NCBI GenBank assembly: GCA_963721715.1
Contig: CAVRKI010000004.1
Span: 1,426,991-1,490,990 of the forward strand
Direction of reading: 5' to 3'
Source: an uncultured Acidobacteriota bacterium
GTDB lineage: Bacteria; Acidobacteriota; Vicinamibacteria; Vicinamibacterales; UBA2999
Length of the DNA stretch: 64,000 nt
Within the stretch, counting starts at the first letter, position 1. Each line of letters opens with the position of its first letter. The notes under the pieces are model-generated. The model had not been told where the DNA came from. It made no database searches and saw only the letters and a list, made by a program, of their open reading frames with translations. Shown one piece after another: positions 2,154 to 58,132 of this stretch. Made by a program: the position numbers and the translations under genes.

Positions 2154-2174
2154 TTTGAACTTTGAACTTTGAAC
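2154..2174. repeat. Tandem heptamer (TTTGAAC)x3, intergenic
   Basis: Three perfect copies read directly, between the stop at 2096 and the ATG at 2196. Confidence 0.95.
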
Positions 2175-2195
2175 GCCGCGCAGTACTTTCTCCCC

Positions 2196-4801
2196 ATGCG
2201 AACGGTTTGCCTGCTGATGGTCTTCATGGTGAGCGGGGGCGCGGTGTCCGCCTGGGCTCAGACGTCGTCGCCACCGGCCGGCGTGTCGCTCGATGTCGCC
2301 ACCAGCCGCGCGGCGGTGGTCTTCGACCTGCGGTATCACCTCACACTGAACGTGCCGAAGGCGCTGGCCGAGCCCATCACCGGCACCAATCGCATCACGT
2401 TCGATCTCCGCAGCAACACCCAGCCGCTGGTCATCGATTTCGAGACCAGCCGCGATCACGTGAAGTCGGTGCAGGCCAATGGCGCCGCCGCGGCGTTCGA
2501 ATACCTGAACGGCCACATCATCGTGCCCAGCACCGCGCTCAAGACTGGGCGCAACGAGATCGTCGTTACGTTCAACGCCGGGGACGCCTCGCTCAATCGC
2601 AGCGCCGACTTCATGTATGCGCTGTTCGTGCCGGCGCGGGCGCGGCAGGCGATCCCGGTGTTCGATCAGCCGGACCTGAAGGCGCGCTGGACGCTGGATC
2701 TGACCTATCCGGAGGGCTGGCAGGCCGTGAGCAATGGCGCCGCAGGCGTGCAGGGAGTCGGCGGCGTCATCAAGCCGGCCGCGCCCCCTGCCTCATGGAG
2801 GACGCTCACCTTTGCCGAAACCGAGCCGCTCTCCACCTACCTCTTCTCCTTCGTCGTCGGCGACTTCAAGGTCGAGACCGCCACCCGCAACGGCCGCACG
2901 TTCCGCATGTTCCACCGCGAGACCGATGCCGCGAAGGTGACGCGCAACCGAGAGGCGATCTTCGACCTCCATGCCGCGGCCATCGCCTTCATGGAGCGCT
3001 ACACGGGCATCCCCTACGCGTTCGGCAAGTTCGACTTCGTCCTCATCCCGGCGTTCCAGTTCGGCGGCATGGAGCACGCCGGCAAGATCCTCTACAACGC
3101 CTCAGGGCTGCTGCTGGACGAGTCCGCGACGCAGAACCAGCTGCTCGGCCGCGCCTCGGTGATCTCGCACGAGACCGCCCACATGTGGTTCGGCGACCTG
3201 GTGACGATGCGGTGGTTCAACGATGTGTGGATGAAGGAGGTCTTCGCCAACTTCATGGCGGCGAAGATCGTGAATCCGTCCTTCCCCACCGTGAACCACG
3301 ACCTGCGCTTCCTGCTGTCGCACTACCCGGCCGCCTATGAGGTGGATCGCACGCCCGGGGCGAACCCCATCCGGCAGCAACTCGACAACCTGAACGAGGC
3401 CGGCAGCCTGTACGGCGCGATCATCTATCAGAAGGCGCCGGTCATCATGCGGCACCTCGAGGCGCTGCTCGGCGAGGAGTCGTTCCGCGACGGCCTGCGC
3501 GAGTACCTGAACGCGCACAAGTTCGGCAACGCCACCTGGAACGATCTGATCGAGGTGCTGGACCGGCGCACGCCCGCGGACCTGAGAGCCTGGAGCAAGG
3601 TGTGGGTGGAACAACCGGGACGTCCGATCATTACGACGAAGCTGGAGGTCGACGGACGGCAAGATCACCAGGCTCGCCTTCGAGCAGAGCGACCCGATGC
3701 AGCGCGGTCTGATCTGGCCGCAGCAGCTGCGCGTCATCCTCGGCGATGCGGGCGGCGCGCGGACGCTGCGGGTCGCGCTCGACGGCGACATCGGCGGAAG
3801 CGAGGGAGGCCGTCGGCCAGCCGGCGCCGGCGTTCGTGCTGGCAAACGGCGAGGGCTGGGCCTACGGCGACATCGTGCCGGACGCGACCTCGCTGGCCTA
3901 CCTCACGCGATCACTGCCCGACATCGCCGACCCGCTCACGCGGGGCAGCGCGTGGGTCACGCTCTGGGATGGCGTGCTCGACGGCCGCGTCGCCCCCTCC
4001 GCGTTCATGGACCTTGCCACGGCGGCGTTGCCAAAGGAAACCGACGAGCAGATGACGTCGCGAGTGCTGGGCTATGCCGGCAACGCGTGGTGGCGCTTCA
4101 TCCCGGCGGCTGAGCGAAGCCAGCGCGCAGCGGCGTTCGAGAGAGTGCTGCGCGAGGGGCTGGACCGCGCCGGGACCGCAAGTCAGAAGGCCGCCTGGTT
4201 TGGCGCGCTGCGCAACGTCTCGCTCACCGCGCCGACGGTGGAGTGGTTGCGCAAGGTGTGGGCCAAGACCGAGACGGTGCCGGGCCTGCCGTTGGCCGAA
4301 GCCGACTACACGACGCTGGCCCTCGAGCTGGCGGTCCGCGAGGTAGACGGCTGGAAGGCCATTCTCGCCGAGCAACTCACCCGCATCGAGAATCCCGATC
4401 GCAAGGGGCGCTTCCAGTTCGTGATGCCCGCGCTGTCCGCCGATCCGGCCGAGCGCGACAAATGGTTCCGCTCGCTCGCGGACGTCAACAACCGGCGCCG
4501 CGAACCCTGGGTGCTGGAAGGCCTCAACTACCTGCACCACCCGCTTCGGACCAGGGCATCCACCGGCTATGTGACGCCGAGCCTCGAGATGCTGTGGGAA
4601 ATCCAGAAGACGGGCGACATCTTCTTCCCGAAGCGCTGGCTGGACTCGATCCTGGGCGGGCACAGCTCGCCGGAGGTGGCGGCGATGGTGCGCCAGTTCC
4701 TGGCGTCGCTGCCCGCGAACTACCCCGAGCGACTGAAGAACATCACGCTGCAGTCGGCGGATGAGTTGTTCCGTGCCGAGGCCGTGATGAAGGGAAAGTA
4801 G
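2196..4801 (+). CDS. M1-family zinc metallopeptidase (aminopeptidase N-like), exported; reading frame broken twice
   Basis: Signal peptide MRTVCLLMVFMVSGGAVSAWA. GGMEH plus HETAHMWFGD...WMKE (HEXXH-18-E) lie in ORF 2169..4055. The C-terminal helical domain continues in ORFs 3697.. and 3746..4801. Frame shifts lie near 3655 and 3790. Confidence 0.85.
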
Positions 4802-4816
4802 TAATCTTCGGGTTCC

Positions 4817-6052
4817 ATGAACCGCCTCTTCCTCTCCTGCGTCGCCGCTCTCCTCATCGGCTCGCTCACTGCGGCGATCGTCGTCGCCCAGGCGCCGGCC
4901 ACCACCGCGCCCGCCGCCATCACCATCAAGGCCCGCCGCGTGATCAACGGGATCGGCGGCACGCTCGACAATGCGGTCGTCACGGTCCGCGATGGGAAGA
5001 TCGTGAGCGTGGGCCCGGCGTCCGGTCCAGTCACGATTGATCTGGGCGAGGCCACCCTGCTGCCGGGGTTCATCGACACCCACGTGCACATCGACTGGCA
5101 CTTCGATGCCAAGGGCCGGTATCACACCGGCCCCGAGCCGTCCGAGCAGAACGCGCTCTACGCCGCGGAGAACGCCTACGTCACGCTGATGGCCGGCTTC
5201 ACCACGGTGCAGAGCGTCGGCTCGCCGCGCGACAAGGCGCTGCGCGATGCCATCGCCCGCGGCGTGCTGCCCGGCCCCCGCGTGCTCACCTCGCTCGGCC
5301 AGATCAGCAACGCCAAGCTCACGCCGGATCAGATCCGCGAACAGGTGCGCGAACGCAAGGCGGACGGCGCCGACCTGGTGAAGATCTTCGCCTCCGCCAG
5401 CATCCGCGACGGCGGTGTGCCGACGCTGTCGCAGGAGCAGGTCGACGCGGCGTGCGGCGAGGCGAAGGCACAGGGGCTGCGGTCGATGGTCCACGCCCAC
5501 AGCCCGGAATCGATGATGCGCGCGGCCCGCGCCGGCTGCACGGTGGTCGAGCACGGCGGCCTGGCCACACCCGAGGCGCTGAAGATGCTCGCCGACCGCG
5601 GCGTCTACTTCGATCCGAACATCGGCCTGGTGACGCAGAACTATCTCGAGAACCGCGCCCGGTTCGATGGCATCGGCAACTACAACGCCGAGGGCTTCGC
5701 CTCGATGGAGAAGGCGCTTGGCAGCAAGGACCAGATGTTCACCGCGGCGCTGAAGACGCCCGGGCTGAAGATCGTCATGGGCACCGATGCGGTCGCCGGC
5801 GCCCACGGCCAGAACATGCGCGAGGTGCTGGAGCGCGTGAAGTCGGGCCAGCCCGCTGCTGACGCGATCAAGTCCCTGACCTCGGTCTCCGCCGAGTCGA
5901 TGGGGCTGGGCACGGAGATCGGCACTATCGCACCGGGGTTCGCGGCGGATCTCGTCGCCGTGACCGGCAACCCACTCACCGACGTCTCCGCGCTTCGCCG
6001 GGTGGCGTTCGTCATGAAGGGCGGGAAGGTGTATCGGGGGCTGACGCCGTAG
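4817..6052 (+). CDS. Amidohydrolase-family metallohydrolase, exported
   Basis: Intact 411-aa ORF. Signal peptide MNRLFLSCVAALLIGSLTAAIVVAQA. GFIDTHVHIDWH (HxH metal site), VHAHS and GTDAVAG motifs. Confidence 0.85.
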   Translation: MNRLFLSCVAALLIGSLTAAIVVAQAPATTAPAAITIKARRVINGIGGTLDNAVVTVRDGKIVSVGPASGPVTIDLGEATLLPGFIDTHVHIDWHFDAKGRYHTGPEPSEQNALYAAENAYVTLMAGFTTVQSVGSPRDKALRDAIARGVLPGPRVLTSLGQISNAKLTPDQIREQVRERKADGADLVKIFASASIRDGGVPTLSQEQVDAACGEAKAQGLRSMVHAHSPESMMRAARAGCTVVEHGGLATPEALKMLADRGVYFDPNIGLVTQNYLENRARFDGIGNYNAEGFASMEKALGSKDQMFTAALKTPGLKIVMGTDAVAGAHGQNMREVLERVKSGQPAADAIKSLTSVSAESMGLGTEIGTIAPGFAADLVAVTGNPLTDVSALRRVAFVMKGGKVYRGLTP

Positions 6053-6125
6053 AAGGCGCGCCTTCGAGCGCGTAGGGTTCGTGGCCCTCGCTGCGCTCGG
6101 GTAGGCGCGCCTGCGGCGCGTCGGA
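6053..6125. repeat. REP-like GC-rich palindromic units (about 3 units)
   Basis: gaaggcgcgccttcgagcgcgtaggg / gtggccctcgctgcgctcgggtagg / cgcgcctgcggcgcg. The same unit type occurs at 12728-12865, 13631-13702 and 52108-52380. Confidence 0.8.
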
Positions 6126-6133
6126 AACACCCC

Positions 6134-6165
6134 GGGTACCGGACACCGGGTACCGGCTCCCGGTC
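6134..6165. repeat. Tandem heptamers, CCGGTAC-like family (gggtacc ggacacc gggtacc ggctccc ggtcc)
   Basis: Read directly. Lies between convergent stops at 6052 (+) and 6167 (-). Confidence 0.9.
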
Positions 6166-6166
6166 C

Positions 6167-7349
6167 TTAGACTACGTTCAGTTCGCCGCTCTTCACGGCG
6201 CCGGCAAACCGATCGAGCGCGAACGGCGTGAGGTCGAACTTCGGATCGTGCCCCGTCAATACGTCGGCGAGAATTCGGCCTGCCGCCGGCGCGTGCTGGA
6301 AGCCGTGACCGCTGAAACCCGCGATGGTGTAGAAGCCGGCGACGTCCGCTGACGGGCCGATGATGGCGTTGTGGTCCGGCGTCATCTCGTAGAGCCCGGC
6401 CCACGCGTGTGAGACCGCGGCGTCTCCCATCGCGGGCAGCCGACGAATCGCCACTTCGGTGACCCGCGGCAGGAAGTCCCAGCGCACGGTGGTGTCGAAA
6501 CCTGGCGTCTCGTCCGGATCGCCCATCCCGAACAGCAACCCTGGTCCCTCGCGATGGAAGTAGAAAGTCGTCTCGAAGTCGATCACGAGGACCTTTGAGC
6601 GAGGCATGCGGCCGGCCCATTCAGGCGCGTCCCATGACCCACCGCGCTCGGGAGTGGCGATGAAGATGTGGCGCCGCTCCGGCTCGACTGGGCACGTCCA
6701 CGCCGAGATAACGACCGATGCTCTTGGCCCACGGACCGGCCGCGTTCACCAGCACCGGCGTACTGATGTTGCCCCTGGAGGTCTGCACCTCGGCCACGCG
6801 TCCATGCGCGAGTCGGACACCGGTGACTTCGGTCTCGCGCACGATTTCCACCCCCCGTGCCTGCGCGCCCTTCGCGAAGCCCATGGTGACGCCGTTGGGA
6901 TCGGCCACGCCGTCGGCCGCGCAGTAGGCGGCGCCGCGAATGCCCGCGACGTCGATGCCCGGTGAGATGCGAGCCGCATCTTCGGGAGACAGCCACTGGA
7001 CGTCCACACCCATGCTGCGCTGGAGAGCCATGTTCTTCTCGAAGGCGGCGACGTTGACGGCCTTCGAGACGAGGAAGAGGTAGCCATCCTGGTGGAAGTC
7101 GATCGGCGCGCCAACCTGCGCTTCGAAGTCGGCCATCATCGCAATCGATTCGATCGACAGGCTGATGTTCGCCGGGTTCGAGAACTGGTGGCGTACGCCG
7201 CCGGCGTTCTTGCCGGTCGACCCGGTGGCGAGCTGTGCCTCGCGCTCGACGAGGACGACATTGGTGACGCCGTGTTGAGCAAGATGCCAGGCGACGCTGC
7301 ATCCCATGCAGCCGCCACCGACGATGACGACGTCAGCCGTTGTGCGCAT
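6167..7349 (-). CDS. FAD-dependent oxidoreductase (DAO family, sarcosine-oxidase-beta-like); frame broken once
   Basis: N-terminal VVIVGGGCMGCSVAWHLA Rossmann motif and TGKNAGGVRHQF lie in ORF 6621..7349. C-terminal AGLYEMTPDHNAIIGP...GFSGHGFQHAP lies in ORF 6167..6607. Removing one base from the ggg run at 6690-6692 joins them as VPVEPERRHIFIATPE. Confidence 0.8.
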
Positions 7350-7367
7350 CGGATGATTGTAAGCCGG

Positions 7368-8684
7368 CTACGGCTGCCGGTAGATCCGTCCGCCCTTCAT
7401 CACCATCTTCACCTTCCGCAGCGCGGCGATGTCGGCGGTGGGGTCGCCTTCGACGGCGATCAGATCGGCCAGCAGCCCCTCGCGGACGCGGCCGACACGG
7501 TTGTCAAGGTGGAAGTACGCGGCGTTGCCGGAGGTGGCCGCCACGGTGACCGCCATCGGCGTCATGCCCCAGTTCACCATCAGCTCGGCTTCGCGCACGT
7601 TGTCGCCGTGCGGATAGACGCCGACGTCGCCGCCAAAACACATCTTCACGCCAGCCGTGACCGCCGCCTTGAAGGTGACGCGCTTCTTCACCAGGCGCTC
7701 GGGCTCCGGCTGCTCGCCCTTCTTCCATCCCGCGTACTGCGCCGTCGCATCGGGCGCACCGATGACCGGGCAGAACGCGACGCCCTTCTCCACCATCAGC
7801 TTCCAGATCTCGGGCGTGCCCTCGTCGCCGTGCTCGATCGTCTCCACGCCGCCGACGATGGCCCGACGCATGCCCTCCGGCGTTGACGCGTGAGCCACGA
7901 CGGGCCGCCCGCTGCTCTTCGCCGCCTCGACGATGGCGACGATCTCGGCCTGGGTAAAGGTGGGGCGGGTCTCGCCGTTCGGCCCCCAGCGGTAGTCGGC
8001 GTAGATCTTGATGAAGTCGACGCCGTGGCCCATCTGATCGCGCGCCACGCGGGTAACGCCTTCGACGCCGTCCGCTTCGTCCGCCCCCTGCGGCACGCGA
8101 AATTCCGAGGCAAAGCCCTTCGGTCCGTAGCTGCCCGTCGCCACCATCGCCGGGCCGGCCACCAGCATGCGCGGCCCGGGAATCAGGCCCTCGTCGATCG
8201 CGCGCTTCAGTCCCACATCCGCGTAGGCGGCGCCTTCGGTGCCGAGGTCGCGGACCGTGGTGATACCGGCCATCAGCGTCCGTTCCGCATGCGTCACCGC
8301 CCGCGCCACGCGATAGGCGATCGGCTCCTTCAGCACCTGGTCGTTCCAGGTGGTCTCGTTGTAGGGATGGAGCAGCAGGTGCGAGTGCCCCTCGATGAGG
8401 CCGGGCATCACGGTGAGGCCGGCCAGCCGAGTCTCGCGCGCGCCAGCGGGCCGGCTGATCGACGCGGCCGGTCCCGCGGCGACAATCCGATCACCGGCCA
8501 CCACCACGGCCCAGCCGCGCTGCATGCGTTCACCGTCGAACACCGCATCGGGCACGAGCACCACCGGCGCGGCGGCCGACGACGGCGGCGGCGCGGTCTG
8601 CGCCTCTGCGGCGGTCGACGGCGCGGTACTGCCAGCGGCAACGAGCGCGAGCGGCAGGAACAGTGCGGCGGCGTATCGAGTCAT
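7368..8684 (-). CDS. Amidohydrolase-family metallohydrolase, exported
   Basis: ORF 7368..8996. I placed the start at ATG 8684 (MTRYAAALFLPLALVAAGS signal peptide). GLIEGHSHLLLH HxH motif, VVAHAST and FGGDVG are present. Confidence 0.85.
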   Translation of the reverse strand: MTRYAAALFLPLALVAAGSTAPSTAAEAQTAPPPSSAAAPVVLVPDAVFDGERMQRGWAVVVAGDRIVAAGPAASISRPAGARETRLAGLTVMPGLIEGHSHLLLHPYNETTWNDQVLKEPIAYRVARAVTHAERTLMAGITTVRDLGTEGAAYADVGLKRAIDEGLIPGPRMLVAGPAMVATGSYGPKGFASEFRVPQGADEADGVEGVTRVARDQMGHGVDFIKIYADYRWGPNGETRPTFTQAEIVAIVEAAKSSGRPVVAHASTPEGMRRAIVGGVETIEHGDEGTPEIWKLMVEKGVAFCPVIGAPDATAQYAGWKKGEQPEPERLVKKRVTFKAAVTAGVKMCFGGDVGVYPHGDNVREAELMVNWGMTPMAVTVAATSGNAAYFHLDNRVGRVREGLLADLIAVEGDPTADIAALRKVKMVMKGGRIYRQP

Positions 8685-8694
8685 GGTGGCGAAG

Positions 8695-8700
8695 TATACT
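8695..8700 (+). promoter_or_regulatory. Possible -10 box TATACT upstream of 8722..9339
   Basis: TATACT lies 22 nt upstream of the ATG. No convincing -35 box. Confidence 0.3.
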
Positions 8701-8721
8701 GCCGCCACCCGCTCCACCCTC

Positions 8722-9339
8722 ATGGCCACCCCCACCTCCGCATCACCATCTGCGCCTCGTCGTTCCAGCCTGGGGCCGCGCATCGGCGCGGCCGTGGCCA
8801 TTGCCATCGGTGTAGCCGTGGCGCTGCGCGTGATGGGCGGCACCACCCCGAAGCCAGAGGTCACGAACCAGAGCGTGGTGAACGCGCCGGATCCCGCGCC
8901 CGTCGATTCCGCGCGATGGCTGGCGGCATTCCCGCTCGAACCACTCGAGGCCCCGGCCATCGTTGGCAACAGCCCGGCCGCCCGGGCGCTGAACACGGCG
9001 CTGGAGCGGTATCGGAAAGGCGACTACGTCGCCGCCGCGACCGCACTGGATGGTTTTCTGCTCGATTACCCTGGCGACCCCGCGGCCACGCTCTACCTTG
9101 GCATCTCGCGCTTGTTCATGGACGAGCCGCAGAACGGGCTGGAGATCCTGCGCGGCATGCCTGGCAGCGCGTCCGAACAGGTGATGGCCGAAGCGGAGTG
9201 GTATTCAGTGGTGGGCGCCGCGCGGCTGCGCGACCCATCCGCGGCCGAGGGCGAGGCCCGCACACTCTGTGAGCGGAAGGGGCCAGCGAGCGCCAGGGCG
9301 TGTGCGGCCCTGGAGCGGCTGCGGAAGAGCAGGCTCTAG
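8722..9339 (+). CDS. Hypothetical membrane-anchored protein with a TPR-like C-terminal part
   Basis: Start at ATG 8722 inside ORF 8395..9339. One TM segment (IGAAVAIAIGVAVAL), then a helical YRKGDYVAAATALDGFLLDYPGDPAATLYLGISRLF segment. Confidence 0.5.
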   Translation: MATPTSASPSAPRRSSLGPRIGAAVAIAIGVAVALRVMGGTTPKPEVTNQSVVNAPDPAPVDSARWLAAFPLEPLEAPAIVGNSPAARALNTALERYRKGDYVAAATALDGFLLDYPGDPAATLYLGISRLFMDEPQNGLEILRGMPGSASEQVMAEAEWYSVVGAARLRDPSAAEGEARTLCERKGPASARACAALERLRKSRL

Positions 9340-9376
9340 GCTCCAGGCTCTGGCTAGAGCCTGAAGCCTGAGGCCT
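9331..9376. repeat. Palindromic heptamer island: (AGGCTCY)x3 - ggct - (RRAGCCT)x3
   Basis: Sequence is aggctct aggctcc aggctct ggct agagcct gaagcct gaggcct. The TAG stop at 9337-9339 lies inside it. Confidence 0.95.
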
Positions 9377-9389
9377 GCTGCGTCCGGAC

Positions 9390-9395
9390 TATACT
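9390..9395 (+). promoter_or_regulatory. Possible -10 box TATACT upstream of 9439..12730
   Basis: TATACT lies in a locally AT-richer stretch 44 nt upstream of the ATG. Confidence 0.3.
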
Positions 9396-9438
9396 TTTTG
9401 GCTGTGTCCGCGAAAGTTCTGGCGGATGCGCTTCGATT

Positions 9439-14214: not shown

Positions 14215-14216
14215 CC

Positions 14217-19808: not shown

Positions 19809-20567
19809 ATGGACGATGTGTTCAGGGCGCTGGCCGACCCGACCCGCCGCAGCCTGCTCGATGAGTTGTTCGAGCGAGACGGGCAGACGCTGACCTCGTT
19901 GGAGCAGCGTCTTCCGATGACCCGCTTCGGTGTGATGAAGCACTTGCGCATCCTCGAAGAGGCGGGCCTGGTCGTCACGAAACGCCGCGGGCGCGAGAAG
20001 CTCCACTTCCTGAATGCCGTCCCGATCAGGCTCGTCCACGACCGGTGGGTGAGCAAGTACGCGGAACCCTGGGCCGCCGCCCTCAGCGACCTCAAGCACG
20101 AATTGGAGAAGACGATGGAGAAGGTATTCGAGATCTACATCAAGACCACGCCGGAGCGGCTGTGGGAGGCGATCGTCACGCCCGAGCAGCGCGAGAAGTA
20201 CAACTTCGGCGCCGGGGTCCGGGGCGAGCTGAAGCCCGGCGCGAAGTACACGATGAGCGCGCGCAATGGGACGGTGATGCTGGGCGAAGGCACGTTCCTC
20301 GAAGTGGAGCCGCCGCGGCGTCTGGTGCAGACGATGGTGGCGCTGTGGAGCGACGAAGTGAAGAGCGAGGGCACGTCGCGCATCACCTGGGATATCCAGC
20401 CGGTCGGCGATTCGTGCCGGCTGACGGTCACCCACGACCAGCTGCGCGAAGGCGTGAACGATCAGCTCTACGGCGGCTGGCCGATGATCCTGTCCGGACT
20501 GAAGACGTGGCTCGAAACCGGCGAACTGCTGACGACGCCGGGATCGATCACTTACGTCACGGCGTAG
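19809..20567 (+). CDS. ArsR/SmtB-family HTH regulator fused to an SRPBCC (AHSA1-like) domain
   Basis: MDDVFRALADPTRRSLLDELF...FGVMKHLRILEEAGLV is the ArsR wHTH. It is followed by FEIYIKTTPERLWEAIV...GGWPMILSGLKTWLETG, which is AHSA1-like. Confidence 0.85.
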   Translation: MDDVFRALADPTRRSLLDELFERDGQTLTSLEQRLPMTRFGVMKHLRILEEAGLVVTKRRGREKLHFLNAVPIRLVHDRWVSKYAEPWAAALSDLKHELEKTMEKVFEIYIKTTPERLWEAIVTPEQREKYNFGAGVRGELKPGAKYTMSARNGTVMLGEGTFLEVEPPRRLVQTMVALWSDEVKSEGTSRITWDIQPVGDSCRLTVTHDQLREGVNDQLYGGWPMILSGLKTWLETGELLTTPGSITYVTA

Positions 20568-20624
20568 GGATCAGACAGCAGGGATCAGGGATCGGTGCGA
20601 AGTCTTGGGGCTTGGGGCTTGGGG
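20567..20624. repeat. Compound heptamer island: GGGATCA units, then (CTTGGGG)x3
   Basis: The sequence is gggatca gacagca gggatca gggatcg ... cttgggg cttgggg cttgggg. It contains the stop codons of both convergent genes (TAG 20565-67, TGA 20571-73). Confidence 0.95.
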
Positions 20625-21317: not shown

Positions 21318-21336
21318 GAGGGGTTCTGTGGGGCCA

Positions 21337-21359
21337 GGGATCAGGGATCAAGGCTTGGG
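21337..21359. repeat. (GGGATCA)x2 plus aggcttggg
   Basis: Read directly. The TGA stop at 21348-21350 of the aldolase gene is part of the second unit. Confidence 0.9.
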
Positions 21360-22475: not shown

Positions 22476-22528
22476 GACGGTCCTCCCGTGCGCGCCGAGT
22501 GTAGCGCGTCAGCGCCCATGACGCTCGG

Positions 22529-22563
22529 CTTGGGGCTCGGGGCCTGGGGCTTGAGTCTTGGGG
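22529..22563. repeat. Tandem heptamers (CYYGRGK)x5: cttgggg ctcgggg cctgggg cttgagt cttgggg
   Basis: Read directly. It lies inside the operon, between the rhodanese stop and the aldolase start. Confidence 0.95.
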
Positions 22564-22571
22564 CGGGCACG

Positions 22572-31163: not shown

Positions 31164-31174
31164 AGCGCGCGCGA

Positions 31175-31195
31175 AGTTCCAAGTTCAAAGTTCAA
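31175..31195. repeat. Tandem heptamers (AGTTCMA)x3
   Basis: agttcca agttcaa agttcaa lies immediately upstream of ATG 31200. Confidence 0.95.
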
Positions 31196-31199
31196 AACC

Positions 31200-31664: not shown

Positions 31665-31795
31665 TCGCGCCGGACACCGTCGACCAGCCGGACACCCGAC
31701 TTCCGGCCGCGATGTGCGTCTGGCCAACTCGCCCCGAACCAAATGGCTCGAACCGGCCGCGCCTTCCAACGCCTGCTCGGGCAGGTAGGCGCCTG

Positions 31796-36700: not shown

Positions 36701-36789
36701 GATCTCGAGAGGTCGTGATCTCGAGATCTGATGTGGAGATCTGAAGATCTGGAGATCGATCGACTGATCTATCGATTGATCTGGCGATC
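36701..36789. repeat. GATC-dense short-period repeat (10 GATC in 89 bp, unit about TGRAGATC)
   Basis: GATC occurs at 36701, 36717, 36725, 36738, 36746, 36754, 36758, 36766, 36778 and 36786. The patch is locally AT-richer and lies between convergent stops. Confidence 0.95.
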
Positions 36790-41091: not shown

Positions 41092-41162
41092 CCGGTGTCC
41101 GGTACGCGGGGTCCGGTACCCGAAAACCCGGAAGCCGGAGACCGGAACCCGGAGCCCGGGAC
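41092..41162. repeat. Tandem CCGGNNN heptamers (about 10 units) inside the permease CDS
   Basis: The units are ccggtgt ccggtac gcggggt ccggtac ccgaaaa c ccggaag ccggaga ccggaac ccggagc ccgggac. They translate on the minus strand as PGLDVPGSGFRSPASGFSGTGPRVPDTGD. Confidence 0.9.
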
Positions 41163-47540: not shown

Positions 47541-47601
47541 AGCCTGGAGGCTGATGTCTGAAGCCTGGCGCCGCCCCAAGCCCCAAGACTCAAGACTCAA
47601 G
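47541..47601. repeat. Compound heptamer island: (NNSCTGR)x4, then (CCCCAAG)x2 (ACTCAAG)x2
   Basis: The sequence is agcctgg aggctga tgtctga agcctgg ... ccccaag ccccaag actcaag actcaag. It abuts the TAG stop at 47604. Confidence 0.9.
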
Positions 47602-47603
47602 AC

Positions 47604-48812: not shown

Positions 48813-48836
48813 CGTAGCACTGCCTCGCCGCCATGC

Positions 48837-48842: not shown

Positions 48843-48849
48843 TCGCCGC

Positions 48850-49734
48850 ATGACACGCACCATCGCCCTCGGCACCATCATCATCGCCGGCACGCTCGCC
48901 ATGGCCGCAGCGCCGTTTGCCGCGCAGCAGCCGGCGGCCGGCCCCAACGTGGCGCAGATCGAAAAGGTGAAGGACAACCTCTACATGATCACCGGGGGAG
49001 GCGGGAACACGGCCGCCTACGTGAGCGCCAGTGGCGTGGTCCTGGTGGACACCAAGCTCGCCAACTGGGGACAGGCGATTCTCGACAAGGTCAAGACCGT
49101 CACCGACAAGCCGGTGACGCACATCATCAACACCCACACCCACGGCGACCACGTCGGCAGCAACGAGTTCTTCCCGGCCAGCGTCGAGATCGTGGCCCAG
49201 CAGAACACGGCCGCGAACATGCTGAAGATGGAGGTCTTCAAGGATCCGGCGAAGAAGCACGGTCTGGCCGACAAGACGTTCACCGACAAGATGACCGTGC
49301 TCGGCGGCAACGACGCCATCGACCTCTACTACTTCGGGGCCGCGCACACCAACGGCGACGCCTTCGTGGTGTTCCGCAACCTGCGCGTGATGCACGCTGG
49401 CGATGCCTTCTCCGGTCCGACCACGCCGATCATGGACGCCAACAACGGTGGCTCCGGACTCGCCTATCCCGAGACGCTCGCCAGGGCCGCGGCCGGCATC
49501 AAGGGTGTCGAGACGGTGATTCCCGGACACAGCACCGTGACCAACTGGCAGGCGTTCCTCGATTACGGCGAGTTCATGAAGAGCCTGGTCGGCTCCGTCA
49601 CCGCGTCGGCCAGGGAAGGCAAGACCGCCGAAGCGGCGCTGGCCGCGTTCGTCCCGGCCGAGAAGTTCAAGTCCTACAATCTCGGGCGCGCGAAAGCGAA
49701 CGTCGAGACGATCTACAAGGAACTGGGGAAATAG
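48850..49734 (+). CDS. MBL-fold metallo-hydrolase, exported
   Basis: MTRTIALGTIIIAGTLAMAAAPFAAQ signal peptide. INTHTHGDHVGSN (HxHxDH) motif. Confidence 0.85.
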   Translation: MTRTIALGTIIIAGTLAMAAAPFAAQQPAAGPNVAQIEKVKDNLYMITGGGGNTAAYVSASGVVLVDTKLANWGQAILDKVKTVTDKPVTHIINTHTHGDHVGSNEFFPASVEIVAQQNTAANMLKMEVFKDPAKKHGLADKTFTDKMTVLGGNDAIDLYYFGAAHTNGDAFVVFRNLRVMHAGDAFSGPTTPIMDANNGGSGLAYPETLARAAAGIKGVETVIPGHSTVTNWQAFLDYGEFMKSLVGSVTASAREGKTAEAALAAFVPAEKFKSYNLGRAKANVETIYKELGK

Positions 49735-49742
49735 AGTCCACA

Positions 49743-49770
49743 GTTCAGAGTTCAGAGTTCAAGGTTCGGG
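49743..49770. repeat. Tandem heptamers gttcaga gttcaga gttcaag gttcggg
   Basis: Read directly. It contains the TGA stop (49745-47) and the last codons of the minus-strand NrsF-like gene. Confidence 0.95.
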
Positions 49771-50539: not shown

Positions 50540-51121
50540 CTATCGCCACGACCGGCCCCCGCGCCCCGAGACGGGGCAAGCAGTTCGCGCAGCCGCCGCA
50601 TCTCCGCGGCTGGACCGCAGCTTCGCCGCGCCCCCCGCGATCCCGAGCTGCGCGCCAATCTCGTGAAAGCTGAGGCCCCACACGTGGTGCGCCACCACTG
50701 CGTGCCGCTGCCCCGCGGGAACCTGGCCGAGGGCCCGATCGAGGTCGGCGGCCGCCGCGTACGACTCGGCTTCGGCCCGAACCGCGGGTTGCAGATCGGC
50801 AACGTCCATGTCGCTCACCGGCCGACGGCGGGCGCGCCGCAACTCCATCAGCCAGCAGTGACGGGCGATGGCCATCACCCACGGCACCACCGGGTAGGCC
50901 GCGTCGTAGCTCCGCCGCGCCCGATGCATCTGCAGGAACGTCTCCTGCAGCACATCCTCCGCGCGCGCCGCGTCGCGGATCCGGCCAGCCAGAAATCGGC
51001 GCACCGCCGGCGCCACGAGCCCGTAGAGCTCGTCGAACGCCTCGAAGCGGCCCGCCTGATAGCTCGCCATCAGGGCGCGCAGGGCCTGATCGTCAGGGGA
51101 CGCGTTCATCGCATCAGCCAT
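50540..51121 (-). CDS. ECF-type RNA polymerase sigma-70 family factor (C-terminal end uncertain)
   Basis: Region 2 is EDVLQETFLQMHRARRSYD...VVPWVMAIARH. Region 4 is HAVVAHHVWGLSFHEIGAQLGIAGGAAKLR. The tail is probably frame-shifted near 50620. Confidence 0.8.
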   Translation of the reverse strand: MADAMNASPDDQALRALMASYQAGRFEAFDELYGLVAPAVRRFLAGRIRDAARAEDVLQETFLQMHRARRSYDAAYPVVPWVMAIARHCWLMELRRARRRPVSDMDVADLQPAVRAEAESYAAAADLDRALGQVPAGQRHAVVAHHVWGLSFHEIGAQLGIAGGAAKLRSSRGDAAAARTACPVSGRGGRSWR

Positions 51122-51196
51122 GGATATGCCGGGAGCGGGTGAATGGTATCAGCGCGCAAGGTGATACTTCGAGGCCAGTCCCGGCAAATCCCAGTC

Positions 51197-52110
51197 ATGT
51201 TCACCCTGCTCCATCAGACGTTCAGCCTGGTCGTCGCGGTTGTCATGGCACTTGCCGCGGCAGTGATCCCCTCGTGGTCCGTCCAGGTGGGCGCCACCAG
51301 CGCGACGTCGGCGCCGCCAGCCCTGCTGAAGATGGCCGAGGCCGAGCGGGCGTTCTCGAAGCGGGCGAGCGACGCCACGCCACGAGACGCGTTCATCGAG
51401 TTCTTCGCGGACGAGTCGGTGAGCTTCCAGCCCGAGCCGGGGAGCGCTCGCGAGCGGCTGCGCAAGCAGCCGGCGCCGCCGCCCGGCACTCCAGCTTTTC
51501 AGTGGGAGCCGCGGACCGGAGACATCGCGGCCAGCGGCGACCTGGGCTATCTCACCGGGCCCGTGCGTTATCCGCAACCCGACGGCAGCATCCGGCACGG
51601 CTGCTACTTCTCGGTGTGGAAGAAGCAGGCCGATGGGACCTTCAAGGTGATCCTCGACATCGGTGTCCGGCCGCCCGGAGAAGTGCCCTTCGCGCCCGGC
51701 TTCGTGCGTTCCCCGGCTCAGGCGTCGGGCAAGCCGGCCTCGACCCGCACGGAGGCCGAGCGCACCCTGCTCGATGCCGACAGCAGGCCTTCAGCGCGGC
51801 ACTGGCATCGAAGGGTGCGGCCGAGGCCTTCCGCTCGGTGCTGCACAGCAGCGCTCGTCTTCATCGCAACGGAACGCTGCCACTCACCTCGCGCGACGCG
51901 GCCGTGGCGTGGCTGACCTCGAACGTCAAGAGCGATGACCAGCGAGCCGATGAAGAGCGAGACCGGCGCATCCGGCGATCTGGGCTACACGTGGGGCAAG
52001 GCCGTGGTCACCGGCCTGACGGCAAGGCCACACCGGGCTATTACGTGCGGGTGTGGACACTGGGTGCAGGCAGCCGCTGGCAGCTGGTCGCGGACATCAC
52101 GCCGGCGTAG
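51197..52110 (+). CDS. Hypothetical exported protein with two DUF4440/SnoaL-like halves; frame broken about 3 times
   Basis: MFTLLHQTFSLVVAVVMALAAAV. GDLGYLTGPV...GCYFSVWKKQADGTFKV recurs as GDLGYTWGKAV...GYYVRVWTLGAGSRWQLV. The shifts lie near 51785, 51935 and 52020. Confidence 0.5.
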
Positions 52111-53296: not shown

Positions 53297-53420
53297 TTGA
53301 TCAGGGGATCAGGGATCGGGGATCAGGAATCAGGAGTTGGGAGTTAGGAAGTTCGGAGAACAGGGATCTGGGGTCGGGTACTCAGGAAACAGCCTCAAGC
53401 CCCAAGCCCCAAGGCTTGAG
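53297..53420. repeat. Largest compound heptamer island: GGGATCA-type x5, GGAGTTR x3, then cctcaag ccccaag ccccaag gcttgag
   Basis: Read directly. ctcaagcc...ggcttgag forms an 8-bp inverted repeat. The cupin ORF runs through the island to the TGA at 53330. Confidence 0.95.
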
Positions 53421-53740: not shown

Positions 53741-53782
53741 AAGGTTCGTGTCGGTGTCCGGTGGCCGCTCTTTCGGCTCTGC

Positions 53783-53808
53783 TTTGAACTTTGAACTCTT
53801 GAACTTTG
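53783..53808. repeat. Tandem tttgaac tttgaac tcttgaac tttg
   Basis: Read directly. It lies in the ferritin-cupin junction and translates on the minus strand as KFKSSKFK. Confidence 0.95.
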
Positions 53809-54561: not shown

Positions 54562-55624
54562 CTAGCGGCGAATACGATCGGCCAACTGGCCCACGGCCAG
54601 CGCGTAGGCGTGGGCGCAGTTGTAGCCGAGGAGCGTTTCGTAGTTGCCATAGACGAGAAACGCGCGCTTGCCGGCCGGCAGCAGCGACGCCGGCGCGGTC
54701 GACTTTGGGCAGGGCGCGCCCCTCGATCGTCCGCACGCCCAGCTTCTGCCACTCGGCCAGCGGTCGCGGCTCGCTCATCTCGCGCTCGGCGCGGCACCCG
54801 GTGGACCGCAGGGCCACCTTCTCGAGCAACGCGTCGGCGCCCCCGGAAGGCAGCTTCACCTCGCGCCCCCACGTCTGGTCGGCCTGCCAGCCATAGGCCT
54901 TCAGATAGTTGGCAATCGAGGCGAGCACGTCCGGCGTGGAGCGCCAGATGTCGCGGTCGCCGTCGCCGTCGAAGTCCTCGGCGTGCTTCAAGTAGCTGGA
55001 CGGCATGAACTGCGTCTGCCCCATGGCTCCGGCCCACGAGCCCTTCATCACGGCCAGCTCGATATCGCCGCGATCGACGATCTGCAGGGCGTTCATCAGC
55101 TCTTCCTTGAAGAACGCGCCGCGTCGTCCTTCCCACGCCAGCGTCGCGAGGGCCTGCACCACCGGGCGCACGCCGCTGAAGCGGCCGAAGTTCGACTCCA
55201 GCCCCCAGATCGCCACCAGCACCCGCGGCTGCACGCCGTAGCGCGCACCGACCTTCGTCAGGGTCTTGCGTTCGGCGGCGGCGTGCTCGTTGGCGGTCTT
55301 GACGAACTTCGGGGTGAGGCGCCGACGGACATACTCGTCCACTGTCAGCACCGTCTCGGCCTGGGAGCGATCGCGCTGCACGACCACCTCGAGCGGTTCC
55401 AGGCCATCGAAGGCCTGCGTGACAGTCGTGGCCCCGATGCCCCGGTCGAGGGCCTCCTGGCGCACACCCTGCAGCCAGACACCAAACTCCGGCCGCGGCG
55501 GCTCCTGGCCGCCGTGCAACGTGGTGCCACACGTCACCATCATCAGGGCGGCCCATACGCCGCGCTTCACGCTCGAGCTGTCCAGCGGGCGCACACGTTC
55601 ATTGTAACGGGGTCTCCCCGCCAC
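54562..55624 (-). CDS. Lytic murein transglycosylase (MltB family); frame broken once
   Basis: IWGLESNFG, GAMGQTQFMPSSY and DFDGDGDRDIW motifs. The C-terminus LVYGNYETLLGYNCAHAYALAVGQLADRI is recovered by a shift near 54690. Confidence 0.85.
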
Positions 55625-55687
55625 GATGCGCTCGACCGGCGCCCGCGGCGATCCACCGGCGCAGTGGGTCGCACGCGGCGCCGGGTG

Positions 55688-57301
55688 TTACCGGGCAATG
55701 CGTACGACTACGGTGGCCGACCCGATGTTGCCGGCGGCGTCGTAGGCGCGCACGACCAGCGACTGGGTTGAGCCCTTCCTCAGCCCTCTTGTGTTCCAGT
55801 CATAGATCAGCTCGGCACCGTTGACGGTTCCGAGCACGGTCCCACTCGTGGTCCGGATGTCCATGCGCACGACGCCAACAGCGTCGGTGGATGTGGCCCG
55901 CACCCTCACCACTCCCGACACCCGCGAATTGGGCGCCGGCGTCACTATGGTCACGACCGGGGCCACGGCGTCACCGCCGGGCGCGACCACCGAAACCTCG
56001 TTCGACGACAGGCTGCGGCCACCGGGGCCGAGGGCGAACACGCGGTAGGTGTAACGCGCCTCCGGCTGCACCGTCGTGTCGTCGTATTTCAGCTGGATGG
56101 TGCCGCTGCCGGGCGTCAGGGCCACGAAGCCCGCATCGCTCGCGCCCCGCCGCTCCAGCACGTAGCTGCTCGCGCCGGCCGATGCCGTCCATGTGAGTGA
56201 GATGGCGTTCCACGGCGCGTCGGGCGTGGACGGGTGGGCCACACCGGCCAGCACCGGAGGCGCCGGCGCCTGCAGTGTGCCAACCGGCGTCAGAAGAACG
56301 CCACCGGCTTCGCCGGTGACGGCGTTGCGCGCCACCGTGGCGATGACGCGGTCGTCGTTGATCTCGACGCCGCTGCCGGTGATGCTCCAGCCTGCGCTGG
56401 TGGCGCTGCTCTCGAGGAGGCTCCAGAGCGCGTAGGTGCCCAGGCCGTCAAAATACACGCCGGCGCCCAGTTCACCGTAGCCGACGTCGCCGCGCCCGTT
56501 GATGCTGGACACCGTCGTGTAGCGGCTCGACCCGGCGAGGAAGCGCCACCCCGCTGGTCCGTCGTAGCGGAACGCCGACACGATGTTGAGGGACGTCGAG
56601 CGCAGCGCGGCCGTCCCCGCCACCTGTCCGGCGTGGTTGATGGCGACGCCACCCACCAGGTTGTAGTTGGATGGGCCGTTCCCGATGATGTCGAGTACGC
56701 CGGTGCTCAGGTCGAGTCGCTCGATGCCGCCGATCAACTGCCCGGCATCATTGATGTCGGACGGCCACACCGCCCACCCGTAGGTGGCCAGCAGATCCAC
56801 CATCACGCCGCTGTCGTGATAGAGCCAGCCGCTGGTCGCCGCCGGCACGTAGCCGAGGGCGCGGCGCGCGCCGACGATCTGCCCCTGATTGTTGATGGCC
56901 GTGGCGTAGGACGATGCATCACCAGGCAGGCGCGGCAGGATCTCGACAGCGTAGCCGGTGCCGGTGGGCTGCCAGCGGACCGCCACCGCATTCCACGCCG
57001 TGTAGGAAACGCCGACGATGACGCCGGAGTCGTTGACGTCGGTCGGGAACACGCTCTCCGCGCCGGCGGGTGTCGGCAGAGCCGTCCATGTGCCGCCGGA
57101 AATGCTCACCAGCGGCAGATAGGTGGATCCGACCACCCGCGCCCCGACGACGACGCCGGTATTGCTGATGGCCACAGGCGAACCCGGGCCCAGGAATTGC
57201 AGGGCATAGGTCGGCGCGGCCGATTGCGCGTGCGTGAATGAAGGGGCAAGTGCCGTCAGCGGAAGGACGGCGAGCACCGAAATGAACAATCGACGGACCA
57301 T
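55688..57301 (-). CDS. Exported HAF-repeat protein with FN3-like and Ig-like C-terminal domains
   Basis: Start at ATG 57301 with a GGAGG SD. Repeats of the type DVNDSGVIVG, AINNQGQIVG, DINDAGQLIG and AINHAGQVAG. Intact 1.6 kb. Confidence 0.75.
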   Translation of the reverse strand: MVRRLFISVLAVLPLTALAPSFTHAQSAAPTYALQFLGPGSPVAISNTGVVVGARVVGSTYLPLVSISGGTWTALPTPAGAESVFPTDVNDSGVIVGVSYTAWNAVAVRWQPTGTGYAVEILPRLPGDASSYATAINNQGQIVGARRALGYVPAATSGWLYHDSGVMVDLLATYGWAVWPSDINDAGQLIGGIERLDLSTGVLDIIGNGPSNYNLVGGVAINHAGQVAGTAALRSTSLNIVSAFRYDGPAGWRFLAGSSRYTTVSSINGRGDVGYGELGAGVYFDGLGTYALWSLLESSATSAGWSITGSGVEINDDRVIATVARNAVTGEAGGVLLTPVGTLQAPAPPVLAGVAHPSTPDAPWNAISLTWTASAGASSYVLERRGASDAGFVALTPGSGTIQLKYDDTTVQPEARYTYRVFALGPGGRSLSSNEVSVVAPGGDAVAPVVTIVTPAPNSRVSGVVRVRATSTDAVGVVRMDIRTTSGTVLGTVNGAELIYDWNTRGLRKGSTQSLVVRAYDAAGNIGSATVVVRIAR

Positions 57302-57395
57302 GACGAAACCTCCACTGTGCGGGTTGCGCCGGCACACCAGCGCGTGTCGAACCACGGGGGGTGTATCCAGCATCCGCCGGGTGGAGATGCCGGTC

Positions 57396-57411
57396 AGTGA
57401 TCCACGTCACA
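57396..57411. promoter_or_regulatory. CRP/FNR-type palindrome aGTGA-N6-TCACa upstream of the Crp-family gene
   Basis: AGTGATCCACGTCACA lies 20 nt upstream of GTG 57431, in the divergent region shared with the HAF-repeat gene. Confidence 0.5.
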
Positions 57412-57430
57412 GAACAGGTGGAGGACCATC

Positions 57431-58120
57431 GTGAAGGGCTCGGACGTGCTCGGCGAACTTACGAAATACGAATGGCTGTTACGCCTGTCGGAAGAGGGCC
57501 AGGAGCGGCTTGCGCACGCAGTGAGTCCGTTGCGCGCCTCGCCGGGCCTGCTGCTCCAGGAGGGCGATGCGTGCGGAACGGTGACGCTGCTCTACACCGG
57601 CCATGTGCAGGTGACCAAGCGGCGGGCCTCGGGCCGGGCCATCACGCTCTACACCGTGGAACCGGGTCAGCTGTGCGTGCTCGAGGTGCTGGCGGTGTTG
57701 ACTCGCGCGCCGTTTCGCGCGGAGGCGGCCGCCGAAGCGCCCGTGACGGGGATCGCAATCCCCGGCGATGTGTTCCGGGCCCTGGTCGACGCCGAGCCGC
57801 GGCTGCGCGATGCGGTGTTCCGCATGTTCGAGGCGCGCCTGGCAGCCGCGCTCGAAATGATTGGCGATGTGGCGCTCGAGCGCCTCGAATCACGACTCGC
57901 GGCGACCCTGCTCCGCCACGCGCACGGGATGCCCGACGTGCACGTCACCCACGAGCAGTTGGCCCACGAACTCGCCTGCGCGCGCGAGGCCGTCAGCCGC
58001 ATCCTCGAGCACTGGGAACGCGCCGGCATCGTGCGCCTCGGTCGCGGTCACATCCACCTGGGGTCGCCCACTCGACTGGGCGGCCTCCATGGGCAGAACT
58101 CTGAACTCCTGAACTCCTGA
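57431..58120 (+). CDS. Crp/Fnr-family transcriptional regulator
   Basis: GTG start with GGAGG 7 nt upstream. A cNMP-binding-like N-domain precedes the HTH THEQLAHELACAREAVSRILEHWERAGIV. The last 8 codons lie in the heptamer island. Confidence 0.85.
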   Translation: MKGSDVLGELTKYEWLLRLSEEGQERLAHAVSPLRASPGLLLQEGDACGTVTLLYTGHVQVTKRRASGRAITLYTVEPGQLCVLEVLAVLTRAPFRAEAAAEAPVTGIAIPGDVFRALVDAEPRLRDAVFRMFEARLAAALEMIGDVALERLESRLAATLLRHAHGMPDVHVTHEQLAHELACAREAVSRILEHWERAGIVRLGRGHIHLGSPTRLGGLHGQNSELLNS

Positions 58121-58132
58121 ACTCTGAACTCT
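58096..58132. repeat. Tandem (GAACTCY / GAACTCCT) x5
   Basis: gaactct gaactcct gaactcct gaactct gaactct lies between convergent stops at 58120 (+) and 58133 (-). Confidence 0.95.

Follow-up and report, generated by a model that had tools for sequence, protein, structure and literature searches.

Tandem Heptanucleotide Arrays in an Uncultured Vicinamibacterales Genome: A Known Kind of Intergenic Repeat in a New Lineage

Introduction

Tandem repeats with a unit of 7 nucleotides (nt) have been found in bacteria of several phyla. According to Mrazek et al. (2007), as summarized in two later papers (PMC4679880, PMC4692102), heptanucleotides are the most abundant class of long simple sequence repeats (long SSRs) in many prokaryotic genomes; in the same accounts, species rich in repeats of 5-11 nt are phylogenetically scattered, and an origin by polymerase slippage was proposed (PMC4679880, PMC4692102). 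A follow-up survey of long SSRs has appeared (PMC4060949), and an excess of intergenic heptamer repeats in high-GC bacteria has already been published (PMC4692102; PMC4679880). Here we analyze islands of such repeats in a stretch of 64,000 nt, hereafter the window, from contig CAVRKI010000004.1 (positions 1,426,991 to 1,490,990) of an uncultured soil bacterium of the Vicinamibacterales (Acidobacteriota). A preliminary description of this DNA had listed 15 islands of tandem 7-8 nt repeats.

The original example of such repeats, at least as cited in PMC4692102, is the short tandemly repeated repetitive (STRR) heptanucleotides of heterocystous cyanobacteria (Calothrix, Anabaena). Rehm et al. (2015) described intergenic arrays of GGGAATC in high-GC Xanthomonas and of GGGGAYT in Nostoc PCC 7120, comprising 2 to >20 units and located mainly between aligned or convergent open reading frames (ORFs), rarely between divergent ones (PMC4692102). 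These arrays overlap stop codons or are at most 50 bp away from them, inverted pairs are frequent, and the majority are transcribed; they mostly occupy the spacers between the same genes in two species, with differing length and sequence. For Xanthomonas, the authors also reported that G-quadruplexes (G4) form in vitro and that four units are preferred (PMC4692102). In addition, MacGregor (2015) found TAACTGA direct repeats in marine Beggiatoaceae, cyanobacteria, and some Bacteroidetes, placed just before start codons and with stop codons in the unit; close relatives have shorter, repeat-free spacers (PMC4679880).

Every anatomical feature of the window islands has a published counterpart in these reports. 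With the long SSRs of Mrazek et al. they share the heptanucleotide excess, the intergenic bias, the patchy phylogeny, the proposed slippage origin, and the instability of unit number (here seen among relatives rather than in the source population). However, long SSRs are a category of genome statistics and not a defined element, and Vicinamibacterales do not figure as heptamer-rich in the accounts of that survey cited above. With the cyanobacterial STRR sequences they share tandem 7-nt units, several families per genome, and a dispersed, mostly intergenic location, which makes the earlier label "STRR-like" a fair one. The phylum and the GC content are nevertheless different, STRR is defined operationally for cyanobacteria, and the window units are not those of STRR1-3, whose sequences are reportedly to be found in Mazel et al. 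(1990).

The Xanthomonas and Nostoc repeats are similar in being tandem heptamers placed in spacers, overlapping stops, forming inverted pairs, and keeping their position while varying in length; Xanthomonas is also high in GC. The window units GGGATCA and CTTGGGG are G-tract heptamers, as in those genera, but GGGATCA is offset from GGGNATC, the phylum is Acidobacteriota, no four-unit preference is evident, and the TTTGAAC, GAACTCT, AGGCTCY, and CCGGNNN units cannot form G4. The TAACTGA system likewise consists of intergenic heptamer direct repeats with the same unit across several phyla; there, a single unit dominates in Beggiatoa (169 sets), whereas the window has many units, and TAACTGA itself is absent from the window. 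Our literature search yielded no report of such repeats in Acidobacteriota or Vicinamibacter. The novelty put forward in the preliminary description accordingly holds for the lineage, but not for the kind of repeat, which has been published for other high-GC bacteria.

Results and Discussion

Period-7 Arrays in the Window

Repeats in the window were detected with Tandem Repeats Finder (TRF) and, separately, with a lag scan requiring 3 copies with at most 2 mismatches. The lag scan returned 11 period-7 arrays, against 0.72 ± 0.89 (maximum, 4) in 40 third-order Markov simulations, and the tandem-heptamer islands are thus real. TRF gave 21 period-7 rows, 18 of which fell within the islands listed earlier, and all 15 of these were present where they had been placed. 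The period-14 and period-21 rows overlie the same arrays and indicate multi-unit duplications. In the lag scan of the window, periods 5, 8, 10, 11, and 13 showed no excess over the simulations, and period 6 was enriched, as coding sequence would give. The proposed unit of 7 nt was borne out, but not the existence of separate 8-nt units: the octamers are heptamers with one additional base.

The same units recur at distant sites, as had been claimed: TTTGAAC at 2154, 31181, and 53782; CTTGGGG at 20604, 22529, 47573, and 53396; GGGATCA at 20579, 21335, and 53299; GAACTCT at 49742 and 58117. When heptamers were drawn from the window's own non-coding sequence, 0.32 coincident pairs were expected among 16 arrays, compared to the 8 observed, a number reached in none of 5000 random draws. 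A composite of GGGATCA and CTTGGGG was seen at three loci.

Of the true period-7 islands, which number 14, 13 are outside conserved coding sequence; the other (41092-41162, previously taken to be intergenic) is an in-frame insertion within a MacB/FtsX permease gene. The statement that islands occur at almost every operon boundary proved too strong, since only about 14 of about 62 gene junctions carry one; among convergent junctions, the figure is about 6 of about 10. Instead of a 7-nt array, island 36701-36789 holds a GATC-rich sequence with period 8/12. According to Pfam, the genes flanking the islands encode MacB/FtsX permeases, M1 and M20 peptidases, amidohydrolases, a PQQ dehydrogenase, a ferritin, a cupin, an ECF sigma factor, and Crp and ArsR regulators. 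The GC content of the window is about 68%, and no Rfam family reached its gathering threshold anywhere in it.

An assembly artefact, which the preliminary description had named as a possible refutation, could be excluded. Independent Illumina, Logan, and long-read assemblies show the same kind of array, and one array is identical across three samples (loci L002, L003, and L004).

Copy Number and Turnover in Relatives

For comparison we used two syntenic contigs (L001 and L002), 79 metagenome loci around orthologues of the M20 peptidase gene, which occupies 42154-43839 of the window on the minus strand, and 118 genome loci containing (CTTGGGG)x3; among the last, L163 is syntenic with window positions 14055-21733, at about 86% (81-90%) nucleotide identity. 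Relatives of the M20 peptidase carry the names Vicinamibacterales or Acidobacteriota. Some of the M20 upstream regions treated as orthologous may belong to a paralogue: the near-identical L009 and L010 apparently contain two tandem M20 paralogues, with the best match at differing offsets.

Instability was already visible between the very close L025 and L026, which differ by 21 mismatches in 5568 aligned bases (99.6% identity) and whose sole indel is one AAGGCAG unit. Copy number also differs at orthologous sites. After the stop of the ArsR-AHSA1 gene, GGGATCR is followed by CTTGGGG in both genomes, with 3 copies in the window versus about 9 in L163; next to island 21337, a single GGGGTTCT in the window corresponds to about 11 tandem copies of (A)GGGTTCT in L163. 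Together, the one-unit polymorphism in near-identical strains and these copy-number differences uphold the earlier suggestion that the tracts are slippage-prone.

Even where an array is retained, its unit may not be. For the five intergenic islands in conserved gene order (20567, 21337, 43864, 53297, and 53783), a period-7 array was also found at the orthologous spacer in every case. However, the ferritin-cupin spacer contains TTTGAAC in the window versus a 100-nt CTGCCGA/CCGGATG/CCGGCTG array in L001, and the L001 counterpart of spacer 53297..53420 has (CAGACGG)x3. L001 and L013 are 97% identical downstream of their arrays, yet the arrays themselves cannot be aligned.

Units also differ at the site upstream of the M20 gene. 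Among relatives with at least 88% protein identity, it is occupied by CCGGTNT, GTCGGGA, CCGGSAA, or GAAGGCA arrays, or by none, and the sequence between its flanks varies from about 75 repeat-free nt in L005 to about 320 nt of heptamers in L001. The flanks themselves are conserved: a promoter-like block, CTGTTGACCC...CCTGTAGAAC, borders the site at one end and AAGGAG...ATG at the other. We note that a block CATTAGAGCACTGTTGACCC-N-GAGAACCTGTAGAAC, again promoter-like (TTGACC...TAGAAC), is conserved upstream of the gene in all close relatives; it lies at 44010-44045 in the window (minus-strand sense), at 9660-9700 in L001, and at about 300-345 in L005, and occurs also in L006, L008, L010, and L013, the heptamer arrays beginning directly after it. 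Judging from the position of this motif, the arrays at the M20 site are probably in the 5' leader of the gene.

Array density fell with distance from the window, as measured in the M20 loci, which were not chosen for arrays. The window has 15.6 period-7 arrays per 100 kb, and its relatives have 13.6 if at least 88% identical, 4.2 at 78-86%, and 2.5 at 67-71%; the density of periods 10-13 in these loci was about zero. Overall, the comparisons gave evidence of an empty site, a seed, expansion, unit turnover, and decay.

Some further observations concern the same relatives. Short-read contigs start or end inside a heptamer array (L004, L123, and L149, each at position 1), meaning that the repeats break assemblies. 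Arrays of (CCCCAGT)n and of the complement (GGGGACT/GGGGGCT)n are present in L079 (5662-5693), L039 (1768-1796), and L040 (4611-4639); CCCCAGT is what we take to be the STRR1 unit of cyanobacteria.

Where the window is syntenic with L001 it has seven intergenic islands (a small sample), and four of these sit exactly at the edges of window genes absent from the relatives. With respect to L001 and L002, the gene-content edges with islands are those of a PGA_cap gene (36677-38199), a beta-lactamase family gene (47474-48848), an ECF sigma factor region (49728-51332), and a Big_7/Crp segment (55456-58132). The arrays may be linked to gene-content breakpoints.

Effects on Genes

Protein alignment showed that the array at 41092-41162 adds about 23 codons, in frame, to a variable linker of the MacB/FtsX permease; this insertion is missing in both orthologues. 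At gene ends, the cupin ORF continues for 34 codons beyond the orthologous stop, across the array, to the TGA of a GGAATCA unit, and the alkylation-repair ORF is 17 codons longer than in L163, running through (CCCCAAG)x3, which is read as PQAPSPK.

It had been noted that several genes take their stop codon from a repeat unit or end beside one. Indeed, the stops at 9337, 20571, 21348, 49745, 53330, and 58118 fall within units, and those at 20565, 47604, and 58133 adjoin one. Such stops are a consequence of arrays growing over gene ends. Selection for stops in the units was considered and rejected, as 6 of 18 units carry one against a background of 20%, which is not significant.

Two neighbouring genes showed changes of their own. 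The permease ORF (39903-41465, minus strand) matches its orthologues at about 80% up to residue ~405 and is then out of frame, around position 40250; this is a frameshift, due to a long-read assembly error or to a pseudogene. Next to the M20 gene, L001 and L002 encode a protein of 420 aa that lacks Pfam domains; in the window (44056-45725, plus strand) it appears split into three same-strand pieces (44422-45027, 45077-45328, and 45330-45725), which suggests indel errors or decay.

Structure, Location, and Orientation

When the islands were folded and compared with shuffled sequences, only 9326-9380 (z = -5.25) and 43860-44008 (z = -6.79) were strongly structured. Both are inverted array pairs, and the second is located in a divergent, promoter-side spacer. 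Three further islands were marginal (z about -2 to -2.6), and the other 10 of the 15 folded like shuffled sequence (z above -1.2), several of them at about 0 kcal/mol. A U-tract followed none of the 15 islands.

Location was assessed in 63 Acidobacteriota loci with an automatic gene caller, whose calls are approximate, and by hand curation of the window. In those loci, arrays occupy 20 of 56 convergent spacers, 42 of 259 tandem spacers, and 16 of 62 divergent spacers, with 7 more inside coding sequences (CDS), and array-bearing spacers exceed the others in length by 70-100 nt. For the CTTGGGG family, the same approximate calls place 17 arrays in convergent, 19 in tandem, and 5 in divergent spacers, despite tandem spacers being about 4.6 times commoner than convergent ones. 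In tandem spacers this family has no strand bias (8 C-rich versus 11 G-rich on the sense strand), whereas 15 of its 17 convergent cases have the G-rich strand as the sense strand of the nearest gene. Like the repeats of Rehm et al., then, CTTGGGG arrays lie near stops on the sense strand and favour aligned or convergent genes over divergent ones.

These data do not support the idea that the islands are terminator surrogates. Most islands are unstructured, arrays are also found in divergent spacers (where the largest island lies), before start codons, and inside CDS, and the CTTGGGG family is symmetric in tandem spacers; consequently, a general role as hairpin terminators does not hold, and the arrays are not a uniform functional element. 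Intrinsic (Rho-independent) terminators, which combine a GC-rich hairpin with a U-tract, do not describe them, and canonical terminator-like sites are not enriched in positions 1-20000 (5, versus 7.6 in shuffles). We also rejected Rho-utilization (rut) sites, because no C-rich bias is present on the sense strand in tandem spacers and the bias in convergent spacers is the opposite one. Nonetheless, the 15:2 orientation bias and the convergent preference leave room for a 3'-end role of the G-rich families, or alternatively for selection acting on the choice of strand next to a coding end.

Repetitive extragenic palindromic (REP) sequences, bacterial interspersed mosaic elements (BIME), and intrinsic terminators resemble the islands in preferring gene 3' ends or convergent spacers, and the two inverted-array islands do form stable hairpins; on the other hand, the islands are mostly unstructured direct repeats, with no palindromic consensus and no U-tract. 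REP/BIME sequences and mobile elements resembling miniature inverted-repeat transposable elements (MITEs) were discarded on comparing filled with empty sites, which revealed neither target-site duplications nor conserved termini or flanks. Nor are the arrays the ends of mobile elements: the genes at synteny breakpoints are ordinary, and no transposase or mobile-element genes occur near the arrays.

Distribution across Genomes

About 0.3 chance occurrences of (CTTGGGG)x3 would be expected in 596 Gb of sequence, and more than 118 stretches were found, which is a lower bound. Among the matches listed, about 44-52 are from Acidobacteriota; the others include Planctomycetota, Bradymonadales, Xanthomonadales-like lineages, Cyanobacteriota, Actinomycetota isolates, and a Chloroflexota genome (Ca. 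Ribeiella danica) with Mb-scale contigs. Several of the listed genomes (Vicinamibacterales, Bradymonadales, and one Chloroflexota) carry at least 4-6 loci of this unit.

The unit is one of many. In the Acidobacteriota set, the 8-kb flanks of the CTTGGGG loci contain 54 distinct units in 130 arrays, and Ribeiella has 48 heptamer arrays in 48 kb. Genomes rich in heptamers, each having many different units, are therefore found in several phyla. Should such arrays be common overall, a large number of hits for any single unit is in itself unremarkable.

Eight of the loci (L088, L089, L093, L096, L099, L104, L121, and L145) come from two 68%-GC metagenome-assembled genomes (MAGs) labelled "uncultured Bifidobacteriaceae". 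L089 has 85-88% DNA identity to the window, implying that its MAG is mis-binned or mis-labelled and belongs to a Vicinamibacterales relative.

Origin of the Arrays

The islands are a real and statistically robust example, new for the lineage, of known intergenic heptanucleotide repeats. We consider it probable (about 0.6) that they are hypermutable SSRs, born in place and turned over by slippage, which persist where 7-nt indels are harmless and whose effects on genes are by-products. According to this explanation, slipped-strand mispairing during replication or repair would expand, contract, and alter the units of arrays that arise locally. Loops of 7 nt are known to be poorly corrected by mismatch repair (discussed in PMC4060949), so that arrays would persist wherever an indel of this size does no harm. 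Tolerated places would be 3' and 5' untranslated spacers, intercistronic gaps, and occasionally coding linkers, if the net change is in frame. As by-products, untranslated regions (UTRs) would be lengthened or restructured, native stops overrun to give variable C-terminal tails, and some hairpins or G4-prone tracts created. In its favour are the excess of period 7 only, the one-unit polymorphism, the copy-number change and unit turnover at orthologous sites, the in-frame coding insertion, the absence of a shared structure, of an Rfam family, and of mobile-element genes nearby, and the matching anatomy of the published Xanthomonas and Nostoc heptamers. That slippage is the molecular mechanism, and that the arrays sit where they do by being tolerated and not by being selected, is what we infer.

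Several observations weigh against this explanation. If generic slippage with escape from repair were the whole explanation, periods 5, 8, 10, and 11 should also be enriched, and none of them is; a 7-nt-specific factor is missing from the account. Recurrence of units at unlinked loci greatly exceeds chance, with many loci of one unit in single genomes, so that random local seeding is insufficient. Arrays are found at the same spacer in relatives of 80-86% nucleotide identity (5/5 islands in conserved gene order), which could reflect selection for an array at the site. Finally, the 15:2 bias of CTTGGGG hints at an RNA-level or G4-related role of that family, and Xanthomonas shows a similar G-rich trend on the sense strand (PMC4692102). 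Neither here nor in the literature does slippage account for the strict 7-nt preference and for the reuse of units at many loci.

An unlikely alternative is that the arrays are selected cis-acting RNA or DNA elements of UTRs, with the G-rich families forming G-quadruplexes and the inverted arrays hairpins; lying after stops or in 5' leaders, they would stabilize 3' ends, aid termination, or tune translation, and slippage would be mere variation. The convergent preference of arrays in general and of CTTGGGG in particular, the orientation bias in convergent spacers, and the retention of arrays at the same spacers in relatives all fit this proposal, as do the strong hairpins at 9326-9380 and 43860-44008 and the in vitro G4 formation and four-unit preference reported for Xanthomonas (PMC4692102). 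With respect to G4, GGGATCA and CTTGGGG have G3-G4 tracts, but the window arrays mostly contain 2-4 intact tracts, and for the most part fewer than four, compared to at least 9 in L071 and L163; a quadruplex requires at least four intact units, each with a G-tract of at least 3; the other window families have no G-tract, and TTTGAAC, GAACTCT, and AGGCTCT are incapable of G4. Moreover, most islands are unstructured, arrays occur in divergent spacers and in one CDS, tandem spacers lack a strand bias, and the unit sequence is not conserved at orthologous sites, some of which are empty in close relatives.

Quite improbable, in our judgement, is a dedicated, 7-nt-specific and sequence-selective process that makes and spreads arrays in some lineages only; candidates would be an enzyme of replication or repair that works in a 7-nt register, the templated addition of repeats at breaks, and template switching or gene conversion between arrays. 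Such a process would match the strict period (8-nt units being only variants), the recurrence of units within a genome, including the composite at three loci, and the many loci of one unit per genome in Vicinamibacterales, Bradymonadales, and a Chloroflexota genome. It would also suit the patchy occurrence of heptamer-rich genomes in Acidobacteriota, Planctomycetota, Chloroflexota, Bradymonadales, Xanthomonadales, and Cyanobacteriota, and the position of four of seven islands at gene-content edges. Yet no candidate gene lies beside any array, the units are very diverse (54 distinct in 130 arrays), a sequence that is single-copy in one relative is locally expanded in another, and filled and empty sites differ by neither target-site duplications nor conserved termini; the more than 118 hits for one unit, as said, need not be surprising. 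Still less credible is the idea that a multimeric DNA- or RNA-binding protein uses the arrays as platforms, reading one unit per subunit, and that they act as phase-variable contingency tracts for their neighbours. Cold-shock proteins and HutP-type binding offer examples of 7-nt spacing. The regular spacing, the presence of several copies, the leader or spacer location, and the copy-number polymorphism would agree with such platforms, and the cold-shock protein CspB is known to bind heptamer repeats, at least as discussed in PMC4679880. However, dozens of unrelated units per genome would require many proteins, and the units are not conserved at orthologous sites. Classical contingency loci, another earlier suggestion, are likewise unlikely: hypermutability is evident, but the neighbours are ordinary enzymes and regulators (peptidases, amidohydrolases, ferritin, cupin, regulators) and not surface or restriction-modification genes, and with arrays in UTRs and spacers a 7-nt step gives no on/off switch of frame.

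The arrays extend a long-known, unexplained heptanucleotide excess to Vicinamibacterales, an abundant and mostly uncultured soil lineage, and provide unusually clear comparative snapshots of a repeat life cycle. Their practical effects are that short-read assemblies are broken (L004 begins inside an array) and that annotated stops are shifted, with spurious or variable C-terminal tails; arrays can also put peptide linkers into proteins, and they could be used as strain markers of high resolution. Only the strict 7-nt period and the repeated use of units offer routes to a more novel, and improbable, reading. Should a dedicated heptamer-generating activity exist, Vicinamibacterales MAGs, with graded relatives and with sites both filled and empty, would be well suited to its discovery.

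Catalogue of the Islands

The coordinates and properties of the islands are collected in Table 1.

Table 1. Heptamer islands and related repeats of the window (MFE, minimum free energy; RBS, ribosome-binding site)
Position	Repeat	Setting	Structure, detection, and gene ends
2154..2174	(TTTGAAC)x3, perfect	tandem spacer, MacB/FtsX permease gene (end 2096) to M1 peptidase gene	TRF score 42, 100% matches; unstructured, z -0.33
6129..6165	CCGGNNN-type heptamers (CCGGGTA/CCGGACA/CCGGCTC)	convergent spacer, amidohydrolase gene (end 6052) versus DAO-family ORF (stop 6167)	TRF periods 7 and 14; fold z -0.85
9330..9378	inverted array pair, (AGGCTCY)x3 then (RGAGCCT)x3		22-bp interrupted hairpin; MFE -40.2 kcal/mol, z -5.25; unit supplies TAG stop (9337) of upstream plus-strand ORF
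20566..20624	composite, GGGATCA-type units then (CTTGGGG)x3	convergent spacer	TRF and sequence; alkylation-repair ORF translated through array (tail ...PQAPSPK...)
21322-21329	lone GGGGTTCT	adjoins array 21335..21359	
21335..21359	(GGGATCA)x2 + AGGCTTGGG	tandem (-,-) spacer	unit gives TGA stop at 21348
22527..22564	CTTGGGG-type, ~5 degenerate units	tandem (-,-) spacer	TRF 5.4 copies; z -2.06
31174..31196	(AAGTTCA)x3.3, TTTGAAC family reversed	fills 36-nt spacer immediately before ATG (31200) of DinB-family gene	unstructured
31668..31712	apparently decayed CCGGACA-type heptamers, not in the preliminary description	convergent spacer	read by eye
36701..36789	GATC-rich, period 8/12, 10 GATC sites in ~90 nt	convergent spacer; edge of PGA_cap gene that L001 and L002 lack	TRF periods 8, 12
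41092..41162	CCGGNNN heptamers	inside MacB/FtsX permease CDS	in frame, ~23 added residues
43863..44005	largest island, inverted CCGGNNN arrays	divergent spacer, promoter-like block to RBS and ATG of M20 peptidase gene (minus strand)	long hairpin; MFE -87.9 kcal/mol, z -6.79
47541..47603	AGCCTGR x4, GCCCCAA x2, CAAGACT x3 in sequence	convergent spacer; edge of beta-lactamase-family gene without counterpart in L001, L002	adjoins stop 47604
49733..49770	(AGAGTTC)x4, GAACTCT family reversed	just past Lactamase_B stop (49732)	TRF 4.1 copies
53297..53420	GGGATCA-type units grading via degenerate units to (CCCCAAG)x3	124-nt spacer, all heptamers/octamers	cupin ORF extends 34 codons in, ends at unit-derived TGA (53330)
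53782..53808	(TTTGAAC)x3.7	ferritin-cupin spacer, tandem, minus strand	
58096..58132	(GAACTCT/GAACTCCT)x4.8	fills convergent spacer; adjoins SDR gene stop (58133)	TGA stop of Crp-family gene (58118) from unit

Two features outside the period-7 families deserve mention. GC-rich short palindromes on GGCGCGCC lie beside stop codons at 6054-6124 and 13630-13660, such a palindrome being the "REP unit" of the preliminary description; as a REP core, however, this 8-mer had to be dismissed, its 20 occurrences in the window comparing with 15.6 ± 4.1 expected. The island at 36701-36789 is the densest GATC cluster of the window and includes XhoI- and BglII-like palindromes. Over the whole window, GATC occurs 456 times, versus 186 expected from base frequencies.

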